This document shows, one piece after another, positions 1 to 59,728 of a DNA stretch of 64,000 bases. Made by a program: the position numbers and the translations under genes. Each line of letters begins with the position of its first letter. Position 1 is the stretch's first letter. Below the pieces are notes generated by a model. The model did no database searches. It was not told where the DNA came from and saw nothing but the letters and a program-made list of their open reading frames with translations. The stretch comes from Candidatus Thorarchaeota archaeon (GTDB lineage Archaea; Asgardarchaeota; Thorarchaeia; Thorarchaeales; Thorarchaeaceae), in the NCBI GenBank assembly GCA_046482545.1, contig JAWOEX010000022.1, forward strand, positions 1-64,000. The letters are read 5' to 3'.

Positions 1-67
1 GGGGAAGGGTGGAACACAGAAGTTTCCTCAGTTGGGTTCACTCACTCAACTGTAAGAAATGGGTTAT
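1..67 (+). mobile_element. 3' end of dispersed structured element (copy A), truncated by window start
   Basis: GGGGAAGGGTGGAACACAGAAGTTTC...CTCAACTGTAAGAAATGGGTTAT is nearly identical to the 3' end of copy E (reverse complement of 59094-59152). Confidence 0.9.
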
Positions 68-17359: not shown

Positions 17360-17752
17360 TTGCACGAATTTTCCGCCGCTTGTTCCATTGTTGATACTGC
17401 CCTAGAAGCAGTTAAAAGTCATGATGTGAACAAAGTTTTGGCCGTAAATATTGAAGTTGGGGAATTCACCTTCCTAGTACCTGAACAGCTTGATTTCAAT
17501 TTCAAAATTGCCGCTGAAGGAACCATCCTCGAAGGAGCTGAACTCAAAATCGAGAAGGTGAAGGGAACCATACGTTGTGCCGAATGTGGCTTTGAAGGAG
17601 AAGCACAGAGTCCAGACGATGTTCCAACACAAATAGCGGCTTTTGCTCCTATGAAGTGCCCTGAGTGCAATAGTAGCAATACTACAATAACCGGCGGTCG
17701 GGGATTCGTAATAACAAATATTGAGGCCGAGGTTGATACGAACGAACCTTGA
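17360..17752 (+). CDS. hypA: Hydrogenase nickel metallochaperone HypA
   Basis: N-terminal MHEFS, two CxxC, GG near C-terminus. Confidence 0.93.
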   Translation: MHEFSAACSIVDTALEAVKSHDVNKVLAVNIEVGEFTFLVPEQLDFNFKIAAEGTILEGAELKIEKVKGTIRCAECGFEGEAQSPDDVPTQIAAFAPMKCPECNSSNTTITGGRGFVITNIEAEVDTNEP

Positions 17753-17873
17753 ATAACCAAAGTCTTACAGAATCATAATAATTGGGGTAGAGAAGTGCAA
17801 CATTTCCTGCAAGTCTTCTACGGGCCAAAGACGGGGGAGGTTATTAGTTCCGGTATGGAACGCCGTCCCAGCA

Positions 17874-18295
17874 TGACTGGGCAAATGGGCTAGTACTCTG
17901 ATACGACACACACGGCCGAAAGCCTAAGGGAAGACCAGTCTTCTAAGCAGAAGCACTCACTCTCCAAACAAGGGACTCCATCGAGTTCAGGAGAGTCCAC
18001 GGCTGTTCACCATGTCTAGACGTATCTTCTCAGCTACGGTGATAAGGCTGAGGTGAGTGATCATGACCACGCCGTGGTAAGGACTGTGGAAGAGTTCGCT
18101 GTCGCCGGGAGTGATGACCCGGGAACACGACAGGAGACAGAAGTTAGGACCGCAGGATGGATATTTCCCAAATGATCGTCGAAAAAGTCTCTGCTTGGCC
18201 GGGGGTAGCGTCTCGGTATAGTGGTGACACTGGGCAACGGAAGCGTGGAACAAACAAGTTTCACGCAGTTGCTACAACTGTAAGAAACAGGTTAA
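17874..18295 (+). mobile_element. Dispersed structured element, copy C (divergent)
   Basis: Colinear with copies D/E (CTCAGCTACGGTGA.AAGGCTGAGGTG, CCGGGAGTGATGACCCGG, CTGTAAGAAACAGGTTA); intergenic between convergent hypA and rps8e. Confidence 0.9.
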
Positions 18296-18322
18296 TAGTA
18301 TGATACTGCTTGCGGAAAAAGA

Positions 18323-18700
18323 TTAGATAAGAACCGCATTCAGTATCCCGTTTTGGCCTGGCCGACTCGTTACCTTAGCCTTGCCTTTTGAAGTCTTGAT
18401 GATTGTACCCTTGGTAATGACCTTCCTGCGTTGATAATCTGGGTTAGCAGGATTCTTGACAACATCTTCCAATTCCGCACGATATGTTTCGCCCTTTTCT
18501 TGATTTGTTACATTGACCATATTGAGGCGGAGGGCTGGGGTCTTCTTATAGCTGCCTTTGCTGTCAATTCTTCGCCGTTTAGCTTCTCCCATTACGGTCT
18601 CAGTTGGTGTCCGCCCGAGTTCATACTTTCTCTTACCCTTGAATCGGCTTTTCCTTGCACCAGTTTTAGTTCTCCGAGATCTACGATGCCAGACACCCAT
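18323..18700 (-). CDS. rps8e: 30S ribosomal protein S8e
   Basis: RSRRTKTG, KRKYELGR, NPAN..Y.RR.VITKG, VTSRPGQNG. Confidence 0.97.
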   Translation of the reverse strand: MGVWHRRSRRTKTGARKSRFKGKRKYELGRTPTETVMGEAKRRRIDSKGSYKKTPALRLNMVNVTNQEKGETYRAELEDVVKNPANPDYQRRKVITKGTIIKTSKGKAKVTSRPGQNGILNAVLI

Positions 18701-25281: not shown

Positions 25282-25619
25282 TTTCTTTTCCTCCTTGATT
25301 CTAAGCATTCTTGATATTGAGGATGTTAGATGATATATATCTTCTACGATAGACAACGTATATGAGGCTAACGTGTACAATTAGCACGCTCGAAAGCAAA
25401 ATATAAACGTCTCACTTGAGCTTCTCCCATTGAGCATGTGACGATTGACTTGATAATCTCTTGACAGATGAAAGATAAACTCCATCGAGGTCAGCGCAAT
25501 TATGCCTCTTCTTAAATCCACATCCAGTTCTTTCCCCGCGTCGAAAAAAGTCTTGGACAATATACCTTATACCATGCGCGTCAAATGTAGCAGTCTTGCT
25601 CGTGATGTCAGAGAAATCG

Positions 25620-26079
25620 ATTAGACAGACTACAGTACCGGATATCAGTAGGGCTAGGGCGGTGAGCCGCTCCTCAAAGGGAGAAGAGATCAGTCCCGAA
25701 GGCTGTAAGGAAGATCCAGTCTTCTAAACAGAAGTCCTTACTCTCCACTAAAGGAACTGCATCAGGTTTCGGAGAGTCTGCGGCTGTTCACCTTGTCTGA
25801 AATGGATCTTCTCAGCTACGGTGACAAGGCTGAGGTGGGTAATCATGATCACGCCGTAGTACGGATTGTGGAAGACCCCGCTGTTGCCGGAGTGATGACC
25901 CGGGAACATGACAGGAGACGGAAGCCAGGCCCGTTGGAGGAATCCAATTCCGGTGAACGTGGACGAAGCCCCTGCTAACCCGAGGGCCTACGGGTAGCCT
26001 TGGGAGCGGCGATGGTGGCAGGGGAAGAGTGGAACACGGAAGTTTCATGCAGTGTACTCAACTGTAAGAAACAGGTTAT
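25620..26079 (+). mobile_element. Dispersed structured element, copy D (full length)
   Basis: Aligns end to end with copy E from ATTAGACAGACTACAGTACCG to CTGTAAGAAA..GGTTAT. Confidence 0.93.
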
Positions 26080-26196
26080 TAAGATAGAATTCCGCAGAAA
26101 AGATTTTTCGCTATAGTCAGGTTTATAATAATTCTAGAACTGGCTCAATTCGTCCAGAAGGACTGTACATACCAATTGGTGAATAAGTTGTCGTCT

Positions 26197-26364
26197 ATGA
26201 AAGCTATAAGATGTACCTCATGCCACCGTTCGATTTCACCGAAAGAGAACAGCGTCAAGTTTCGATGCCCATCATGTGGAGAATTCATCATATGGCGTTG
26301 TGAAGATTGCAGACGTTTTTCCATCAACTACACATGCCCGAATTGTGGCTTTCAGGGGCCTTGA
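26197..26364 (+). CDS. Small Zn-finger protein DUF1610 / HVO_2753 family
   Basis: CTSC, F.CPSCGE, RC..CR, YTCPNCGFQGP; conserved position upstream of EF-1beta. Confidence 0.9.
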   Translation: MKAIRCTSCHRSISPKENSVKFRCPSCGEFIIWRCEDCRRFSINYTCPNCGFQGP

Positions 26365-59093: not shown

Positions 59094-59551
59094 ATAACCC
59101 ATTTCTTACAGCTGAGTAAACTGCGTGAAACTTCTGTGTTCCACCCTTCCCCTGCCAGCGTCGCCGCTCCTACGGTACCCGTAGGCCCGTGAGTCAGCAG
59201 GGGCTTTGTCCGCGTTCACTGGAATGGGATTCCTCCCGCGGTCCTGGCTTCCTTCTCCTGTCGTCATCCCGGGTCATCACTCCCGGCAACAGCGAGGTCT
59301 TCCACAGTCTTTGCCACGGCGTGGTCATGATCACCCACCTCAGCCTTGTCACCGTAGCTGAGAAGGACCATCTAGACATGGTGAACAGCCGCGGACTCTC
59401 CGGAACCTGATGAAGTTCCTTCAATGGAGAGTGGGGACTTCTGTTTAGTGGAACGGATACACCTCACAGCTTTCGGGGCTGAGCGCTTCTCCCGTTGGGA
59501 GTGGCTCACCGCCCTAATCCTACTGATATTCGGTACTGTAGTCTGTCTAAT
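59094..59551 (-). mobile_element. Dispersed structured element, copy E (full length)
   Basis: Reverse complement aligns end to end with copy D (25620-26079). Confidence 0.93.
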
Positions 59552-59728
59552 GAATTTTTCTTTGGTCACAAAAAGGGCTCGATGAAATCTTACACTTTAC
59601 TGTGCTGATTTACTTAGGACTTTGTAAGATTTACAAAGCTCTTGAACTCCTGAGTTGTTTTTGTTCCTTTCCACCAATCATTTATGCGAGGATTGTTGCA
59701 TACCGGTAGTACAACCGGGGACACGAAC

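Follow-up and report, generated by a model that had tools for sequence, protein, structure and literature searches.

The repeat at positions 17,874 to 18,295 is part of a gene-less mobile element of ~570 bp that is present in ~70 copies in this Thorarchaeota genome, and the copy found there, copy C, is a worn member of the family. It is likely that copy C is a decayed member of a set of protein-less, MITE/PATE-like derivatives of a ~8.2-kb Thorarchaeota transposon, and that the set encodes a TnpB omega-RNA used in trans. Such an omega-RNA-only MITE of an Asgard TnpB transposon would belong to a known kind of selfish element, though to an unusual variant of it that has been described only in part, with a very large RNA, a promoter-like box of its own and a target duplication as its unusual features. 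Throughout, the window denotes the whole stretch of 64,000 nt that was analysed.

The repeat is confirmed as real and far above chance. A BLASTN search of the whole 3.05-Mb, 45-contig assembly with copy D as the query gave ~75 matches, and at least 69 right ends in the assembly share a sharp terminus, ..CTGTAAGAAACAGGTTAT, followed by copy-specific DNA. Because a number of contigs start or stop within a copy, this count falls short of the true copy number. By contrast, the genome contains only five to six tnpB genes, and the copies lacking tnpB (orphans) outnumber tnpB genes by ~10:1. Of 24 genomes sampled from the same family, 17 contain the RNA module of the repeat, whereas it was found in none of the 16 sampled from other families of the phylum. 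The names given to close protein homologues likewise point to Thorarchaeota as the host. Within the window there are three long copies (C, D and E), in addition to copies A, B and F, which are a fragment, a mini copy and a stub, respectively. Their features are as follows.

1-67, plus strand: copy A, a right-end fragment, the rest of which is cut off by the contig start.
15729-15983, minus strand: copy B, a 255-nt mini copy with an internal deletion.
17747-17752, plus strand: left junction core CCTTGA of copy C, a degenerate counterpart of the TCNNGA direct repeat.
17753-17873, plus strand: 5' module of copy C, composed of the left end ATAACCAAAGTCTTACAG... and a linker with the TATA-like box.
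17841-17846, plus strand: TATA-like box TTATTA of copy C, 27 nt 5' of the RNA module.
17874-18295, plus strand: RNA module of copy C, an omega-RNA-like scaffold; the first ~290 nt correspond to tnpB tail codons and the remainder is non-coding.
18063-18068, plus strand: predicted pseudoknot 5' strand ATGACC of copy C, pairing with the terminal hexamer.
18265-18280, plus strand: terminal hairpin GCAGTTG CTA CAACTG of copy C, inside the GUUUC/GAAAC helix.
18290-18295, plus strand: right-end hexamer GGTTAA of copy C (consensus GGTTAT), the predicted pseudoknot 3' strand and last bases of the scaffold.
18296-18315, plus strand: flank of copy C, by position a candidate guide source if transcription runs on.
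~25610-26079, plus strand: copy D, a 5'-truncated element with no recognisable left end.
25617-25623, plus strand: degenerate TATA-like box of copy D.
25651-26079, plus strand: RNA module of copy D, with 87 of the 90 consensus pairs kept.
~59094-59645, minus strand: copy E, a complete orphan with its left end and core near 59629-59645.
59094-59520, minus strand: RNA module of copy E, with 88 of the 90 consensus pairs kept.
62437 to ~62486, minus strand: copy F, a right-end stub of ~50 nt.

The element at copy C begins at 17753, and position 17874, from which the preliminary description had it start, is the 5' end of the RNA module. What remains of copy B is the left end and the final ~50 nt of the RNA module; the terminal hairpin is missing. 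The hexamer CCTTGA at 17747-17752 doubles as the stop codon of the ORF upstream of copy C.

Over positions 17874-18295, copy C shows homology to the final ~310 nt of a tnpB gene that encodes 560 aa and to ~125 nt of non-coding right end. A Pfam search of the genome for TNB/Zn-ribbon domains gave seven matches, five of which lie immediately upstream of repeat copies, and the tnpB ORFs encode proteins of 544-560 aa. Six-frame search with the 560-aa TnpB revealed four genes of full length, a relative with 47% identity and a copy truncated at its N-terminus, together with ~55 fragments that match only TnpB residues ~458-559, most of them with stops. The last ~100 residues of TnpB read GLG(K/R)WA...PKA...K(S)LLS...GESAAVH...GSDDP...QE(K/T)EA..GG; the homology of the module begins at the GLG(K/R)WA codons and ends at GGTTAT. 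At five tnpB genes the module overlaps the tnpB 3' end and extends to the right end of the transposon, which is the position of an omega-RNA. The decayed reading frame of the repeat is the C-terminal tail (residues ~458-560) of the intact 544-560-aa TnpB of the same genome. The repeat copies are indeed tnpB-less derivatives that keep the 3' end of tnpB and the right end, as had been supposed from the letters alone; the intact tnpB that was then set as the test adjoins copies of the same 3' module in this genome, and the proposed likeness of the peptide to Thorarchaeal TnpB tails is confirmed by homologues.

A complete orphan of ~570 bp consists of a left end, a TATA-like box, a structured RNA of ~420 nt and a right end, and the modal orphan length in an all-against-all comparison is 555-585 bp. 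Homology between the orphans and the tnpB elements has one fixed start, ~434 nt before the right end, and continues to the right end. The ~140 nt 5' of the RNA module are common to the orphans and contain no tnpB sequence. The nearest tnpB lineage differs between orphans; C36, for instance, shares 96% identity with the C20 element. The orphans have no coding capacity and contain stops and frameshifts, as in a non-autonomous element of the PATE/MITE type. Shorter copies are mostly internal deletions with both ends retained, which argues for a DNA transposon with cis-acting termini rather than 5'-truncated retrocopies. A TPRT-like 5'-truncated retroelement, an idea raised by the variable 5' ends, was rejected on this ground.

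A predicted RNA fold common to the modules is strongly supported by covariation. The alignment comprised 37 modules from 15 genomes: this genome contributed 23, including two that are linked to tnpB, and relatives belonging to other genera contributed 14. RNAalifold gave 90 pairs for the 37 sequences, 46 of which show at least one double compensatory change. Canonical pairs occupy 95.2% of the pair cells, compared to 88.8 ± 0.3% in 300 column shuffles, none of which reached the observed value for any measure; when the partners were slid by 1-3 columns, only 40-44% of the cells were paired. The fold spans ~420 nt, from GGACUAGG to GGUUAU, and its first helix is GGACTAGG. The segments AAAGCCCCTGC.../...GCAGGGG (AAAGCCCCUGC/GCAGGGG), formerly likened to a right-end hairpin of the IS200/IS605 kind, form a long-range RNA helix that closes a multi-branch junction and shows covariation. 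The terminal hairpin is enclosed by a GUUUC/GAAAC helix. The oversized scaffold that had been anticipated is borne out, with a covariation-supported fold of ~420 nt against a functional scaffold of 116 nt in ISDra2 (PMC10097598). A search of Rfam 15 found no family at gathering score in the window and none at E <= 10 for copy D. Group I and group II introns, HEARO and other known RNAs are thus unsupported.

In addition to the nested helices, the conserved unpaired segment AUGACC and the terminal GGUUAU can form a 6-bp pseudoknot, in which 95% of the cells are paired, compared to 23-42% in the slid controls. Its pairs exchange among G-U, A-U and G-C, C-G changes to A-U in three genera, and U-A changes to G-C or A-U in two others; compensatory changes occur at three of the six pairs. 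The involvement of the terminal six bases in the pseudoknot places the end of the scaffold at GGUUAU, and the guide would begin directly 3' of it. This agrees with the guide start proposed in the preliminary description, and the five flank strings quoted there all lie directly after GGTTAT. A guide-adjacent pseudoknot is a hallmark of TnpB and Cas12 guide RNAs (PMC10097598).

Among four tnpB genes, divergence at the three codon positions is 0.28/0.20/0.545 in the core and flat in the tail, at 0.25/0.22/0.22. Unlike the core, the tail has no excess of third-position substitutions, which points to constraint at the RNA level and thus to a tail probably shaped by RNA rather than protein. The tail frame is nonetheless open to about the same end in hundreds of homologues of 555-562 aa.

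We also considered that the fold might be a cis-acting transposition signal, in DNA or RNA, for a transposase that is possibly the giant protein described below, its overlap with tnpB being incidental. This reading accords with the retention of both termini in the mini copies, with the terminal hairpin and GGTTA at the extreme end, with a right-end-like motif that also occurs upstream of tnpB, and with searches of the genome and the giant protein in which no transposase was recognised. However, a multi-helix structure of ~420 nt with a pseudoknot and G-U pairs argues for selection on one RNA strand, and paths from G-U to A-U to G-C are not neutral in duplex DNA. Moreover, the 255-nt copy B lacks most of the fold yet has both ends, so the ends do not need the fold, and overlapping the 3' end of tnpB while finishing at the right end is the defining position of an omega-RNA. 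We therefore regard a cis-acting signal as quite improbable.

The part of the orphan upstream of the fold contains a TATA-like box (TTTATTA, preceded by a G-rich stretch) that ends exactly 27 nt before GGACTAGG in 24 of 31 scanned orphan rows. Both scanned tnpB-linked rows lack the box and have coding sequence at that position. By archaeal promoter geometry, a box so placed would direct initiation to the 5' border of the fold, and from its position we infer that transcription of the orphans may begin there. A contig from an RNA library is identical to copy C over 17807-18627; contigs of this kind give neither ends nor strand and, as DNA can be present in RNA libraries, are a weak hint of expression. 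The depth of metatranscriptome contigs in bin 18003-18336 is 104-211, compared to 0-14 elsewhere, but these are per-contig figures summed over repeat-derived contigs, which cannot rank expression and in which uncovered parts carry no meaning. One chimeric metatranscriptome contig that joins copies D and C is an artefact of repeat assembly.

Most orphans keep 93-100% of the pairs, equal to the tnpB-linked copies; copy C keeps 74 of the 90 consensus pairs (82%) and is among the most decayed copies. Copy-specific substitutions per conserved column amount to 0.62 at paired and 0.55 at unpaired positions, and 59 of 85 break the pair. Individual orphans thus do not appear to be under selection, and single copies seem to decay neutrally. 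This speaks against a maintained genome-wide set of guides of the kind that had been suggested, since substitutions private to one copy fall on paired and unpaired positions alike and in most cases disrupt the pair. Along lineages, the fold, with the pseudoknot of its terminal six bases, is kept by compensatory changes.

The same figures bear on the possibility that the orphans are inert deletion relics, unused by TnpB, whose RNA-like conservation merely reflects recent descent from tnpB-linked omega-RNA genes. Private substitutions that are neutral with respect to pairing, the 82% of pairs left in copy C, the many truncated or internally deleted copies, and RNA-library contigs that give neither ends nor strand would all suit such relics. 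Yet the architecture of the deletion is the same in all orphans, which have a TATA-like box at a fixed position where the tnpB-linked copies lack one, and compensatory changes occur among orphan lineages, most of which retain pairs at the level of tnpB-linked copies. In addition, the excess of orphans over tnpB genes indicates that it is the RNA-bearing form that propagates. Inert relics are therefore unlikely, and an RNA-bearing element that spreads as such is preferred.

The junctions of the orphans indicate how they insert. The hexamer at the junctions varies by copy (TCAAGA, TCTGGA, TCTAGA, TCTTGA, TCCAGA, TACAGA, TCATGA, TCTCGA and TCAGGA), and of 35 anchored copies, 16 have the same 6-nt core on both sides and four more differ by one mismatch. 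At the sequence level, the repeated hexamer is the signature of a 6-bp target duplication at the palindrome-like TCNNGA. In copy C the core has decayed. Two sister species lack an insertion at the site of copy C, and in both of them the intergenic stretch is too diverged to fix the exact length of the duplication. Some copies are 96-98% identical to each other, which together with the empty site indicates recent mobility, and contigs break at copies. Longer similarities in the left flanks were also considered as mismatched copies of the guide left by RNA-guided integration; they are better explained by new insertions that landed at the core beside an older left end, as in the C18 copy.

The tnpB genes of C20 and C28 lie in units of ~8.2 kb that are bounded by an orphan-type left end and the right end, in the order left end, small ORF, giant gene on the opposite strand, tnpB, guide-RNA gene and right end. 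A GNAT gene is split by the C20 unit, which has TCTGGA(TTGC) at either side, and removal of the unit and one repeat restores the frame; a DNA search of four relatives found no uninterrupted GNAT orthologue. The terminal inverted similarity of the parent is weak. The giant gene encodes 1410 or 1655 aa (29% identical to each other), is divergent from tnpB, and forms four giant-gene/tnpB pairs in the genome. Its product has an invariant E369...D382...(D/E)xK408 motif, and its homologues are all Thorarchaeal 'hypothetical proteins'. Searches of Pfam, NCBIfam, PADLOC and PDB sequences gave no match to it, and the scores of ESM-Atlas features, at most 0.77, stay within noise. Residues 1-900 and 880-1410 were modelled with AF2 at a pLDDT of ~60; the models gave weak RecA/KaiC-like matches at E ~1e-3, and the low-confidence model of the C-terminal part (pLDDT ~60) matched nothing.

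Transposons of the IS200/IS605 family have a Y1 HUH TnpA, make no target duplication, insert 3' of a short motif and have subterminal hairpins at both ends, and those of the IS607 family have a serine-recombinase TnpA. The only Y1 TnpA gene in the genome is truncated and unlinked, and a search for the resolvase domain of serine recombinases gave no match in this 98.9% complete genome. An IS200/IS605 parent, as originally envisaged, is ruled out by the 6-bp target duplication, by the ~8.2-kb unit with its giant partner gene and by the truncated, unlinked TnpA; an IS607 parent is ruled out by the lack of a resolvase-domain match.

The TnpB encoded by these units looks active, with a RuvC site that is rearranged but apparently complete. 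All of 26 homologues have D242 (GIDLG), D437 (NADRNG), E403 in PExWTS and the four cysteines of the Zn ribbon, and all have a glycine (G345) in place of the canonical RuvC-II glutamate. The same arrangement, with Glu replaced by Gly and an alternative Glu in β5, defines a published rearranged RuvC-II (RIIr) class that is predicted to be active (PMC10691335). As the catalytic residues are conserved in rearranged form, the nuclease-dead regulator that the preliminary description had allowed for is unlikely.

The flanks of the copies bear on the same question. They differ in every copy after the common (T)CNNGA, and a search of the genome for a second site of each flank gave exact 14-mer matches for 2-3 of 69 flanks, compared to 1-2 of 69 controls, and no exact 16-mer match. 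The genomic targets suggested for the flanks thus do not appear beyond the control level, which fits a guide that is the copy's own flank rather than a regulatory network. A domesticated, TldR-like regulator, in which a nuclease-dead or repurposed TnpB would use the orphan RNAs as host-maintained guides to control adjacent genes, could account for the many intergenic copies that adjoin gene ends and for the missing canonical RuvC-II glutamate. It is nevertheless highly improbable: D242, D437 and the invariant alternative glutamate are as expected for the active rearranged class, insertions of the copies differ between sister species, the copies decay neutrally, tnpB lies inside a mobile 8.2-kb unit, and the guides have no second genomic match.

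Altogether, we favour a TnpB guide RNA that is used in trans, and propose the following course. The orphans retain the left end of the parent and the complete ~420-nt RNA that overlaps the tnpB 3' end and runs to the right end, and this RNA would be the omega-RNA of a TnpB clade with a rearranged, complete RuvC site. RNAs of young orphans may load in trans into TnpB supplied by the few full-length elements. The guide would be the DNA just 3' of GGUUAU, and each copy would direct cleavage of its own unoccupied or excised site, after which recombinational repair would restore the element and thereby favour its retention. Single copies, once inserted, would not be maintained and would decay, as copy C appears to have done.

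A difficulty for this course concerns the target-adjacent motif (TAM). Logos of the left flanks show nothing conserved beyond the core, and the duplication of the core gives an occupied right-end junction the appearance of a target. This leads to a more specific and improbable reading, in which a cut-and-paste, target-duplicating transposon may have a TAM only where two duplications abut, namely in the excision footprint, since with a scaffold that finishes at GGUUAU the first bases of the guide fall within the duplicated (T)CNNGA. TnpB with the RNAs of ~60 promoter-bearing orphans would then cut footprints, and the giant PD-(D/E)xK/RecA-like partner, like the additional ~300 nt of RNA, would be part of a new RNA-guided transposition machinery. 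If so, virgin sites and occupied junctions would be spared, and a footprint-specific 'restore the element' drive would serve autonomous and gene-less copies alike.

The guide RNA proposed above matters in several respects. The covariation-backed model of an exceptionally large Asgard TnpB guide RNA with a guide-adjacent pseudoknot fixes the expected start of the guide. A TnpB clade with a rearranged site rides on a target-duplicating transposon that is neither IS200/IS605 nor IS607, which raises the question of how self-targeting is avoided. A guide-only MITE with a promoter-like box, in such excess over the nuclease genes, is a natural test case for trans-acting guide RNAs, and the tnpB genes of this genome, for example those at C23:122407-124089 and C20:228653-230332, and its orphan RNAs, such as that of copy E, are directly usable in reconstitution.

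Among known systems, TldR proteins have lost their catalytic residues and are encoded at a fixed, non-mobile locus with a guide that matches a promoter. Here, the catalytic residues are kept, the unit is mobile and the guides have no second site. A closer parallel is provided by the PATE-like, protein-less IS200/IS605 derivatives of Geobacillus stearothermophilus, whose omega-RNAs are used in trans (Meers et al. 2023, 10.1101/2023.03.14.532601). As in those, the orphans have no protein gene, share their ends with a TnpB element, keep the omega-RNA region and are multi-copy, and they would likewise use TnpB in trans. They differ in that the parent is not IS200/IS605, given its 6-bp TCNNGA duplication, weak terminal inverted similarity and giant gene, and in that the orphans have a dedicated archaeal TATA-like box and a scaffold of ~420 nt.

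Asgard aCas1-associated TnpB transposons were reportedly treated by Makarova and colleagues in the CRISPR J in 2020. Repeat-flanked examples (Cas1H-Asgard-1/2) are presented by Altae-Tran et al. 2023 (PMC10691335), who also place a 'hypervariable region', a possible guide, 3' of tnpB between a conserved T and GTTCACTCA. All tnpB-linked right ends in the present genome carry GTTCACTCA as the loop of the terminal hairpin, and for this reason the element is very probably the published Asgard aCas1-TnpB system, judged by sequence comparison. The two have in common an Asgard host, repeat-flanked loci and a GTTCACTCA region downstream of tnpB after a variable stretch; they differ in that no Cas1 was detected here, either in the genome with the Pfam model or in the low-confidence AF2 models of the giant partner protein. 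The orphan family, its promoter and the full fold were not found in the consulted passages of that article (PMC10691335). In the present genome, the variable stretch supplies the 5' strand of the terminal hairpin and is common to many copies, and in one orphan subfamily a short hairpin with a CTA loop stands in place of the GTTCACTCA-loop hairpin. A stretch that is common to many copies and forms one strand of a hairpin is structure and unlikely to be a guide, which suggests that the literature's 'hypervariable region', proposed as the guide, is a hairpin strand. The protein resembles the RIIr TnpB (PMC10691335) in that an invariant Gly stands where the canonical Glu would be and PExWTS, which precedes the Zn ribbon, contains an invariant Glu.

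TnpB omega-RNAs read their guide from the DNA flanking the right end, and the omega-RNA (reRNA) of ISDra2 TnpB was reportedly described by Karvelis and colleagues in 2021. That RNA has a functional scaffold of 116 nt and a total length of 231 nt (Nakagawa 2023, PMC10097598). Similar to it, the RNA studied here overlaps the tnpB 3' end, extends to the right end and has a predicted pseudoknot that involves the bases just 5' of the guide, and in both systems the protein C-terminus that overlaps the RNA is poorly constrained. Compared to ISDra2, the conserved structure is much larger, at ~420 nt, the 100-aa tail is open in hundreds of homologues, and the RuvC-II site is rearranged.

The 100-residue tail of TnpB appears to be constrained by an RNA that overprints it. 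Divergence per codon position was 0.25/0.22/0.22 in the tail versus 0.28/0.20/0.545 in the core, the tail lacking the third-position excess, and hundreds of homologues nevertheless keep its frame open as far as the same end point. At the other end of the gene, a right-end-like motif (..GTGAACTCAACT..AGAAACAGGTTA) lies directly 5' of the TTTAAATA box and the tnpB start codon, in the divergent promoter region common to tnpB and the giant partner gene of the 8.2-kb parent element. This motif may be left over from nesting; alternatively, it could act in autoregulation as a built-in second guide or operator. The two features are located as follows (L006, a tnpB-bearing stretch with its own numbering; G000, the whole assembly; C18 to C28, its contigs).

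L006:1720-2031, an example of the 100-aa TnpB tail, tnpB codons ~458-560
L006:250-330, right-end-like motif upstream of tnpB; its equivalent is in the ~110 nt preceding each tnpB start, e.g. G000:C28:135190-135300

Two orphans, the tnpB-less members of the family, stand head-to-head at G000:C20:181319-182442, and the right flank of another at G000:C18:~5193 consists of an older copy's left end, now decayed; these arrangements show that the same TCNNGA core has been used for insertion repeatedly. At the orphan-family copy D, synteny with two sister species (window 25380-26270) ends exactly at the element. As the block downstream is inverted and about 41 kb away in both species, the repeat may mark the rearrangement point. 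At copy C, word depth in salt-lake metatranscriptomes (three runs from two studies, counted on contigs rather than raw reads) was 104-211 in the bin window 18003-18336, compared to 0-14 in the rest of the 10-kb stretch, which may mean that RNA from the family's conserved parts is abundant, or that repeat contigs have been summed. The tnpB element on C23 has an atypical right end without CTGTAAGAAACAGGTTAT (G000:C23:124170-124300, outside the window), adjoining the apparent 3' end of an opposite-strand tRNA gene.

The only Y1 (HUH) TnpA of the genome (G000:C24:6134-6874, equivalent to L008:1474-2214) adjoins no tnpB; it is good over the N-terminal ~100 residues, after which the frame enters unrelated sequence, and the gene is probably a pseudogene. 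The giant gene is found at four loci of the assembly, in every case divergent from tnpB.

G000:C20:230588-234817, giant gene, outside the window
G000:C23:118167-122144, giant gene, outside the window
G000:C28:136509-141473, giant gene, outside the window
G000:C28:2929-7377, giant gene, outside the window

The products, of 1410-1655 residues, share 24-32% pairwise identity and an invariant E...D...(D/E)xK motif. Sequence searches for known domains found none, and likeness to Cas1 was not detectable. The giant gene is a candidate for the transposase, or for a partner, of the 8.2-kb element, and its product gives a weak RecA/KaiC-like fold signal.
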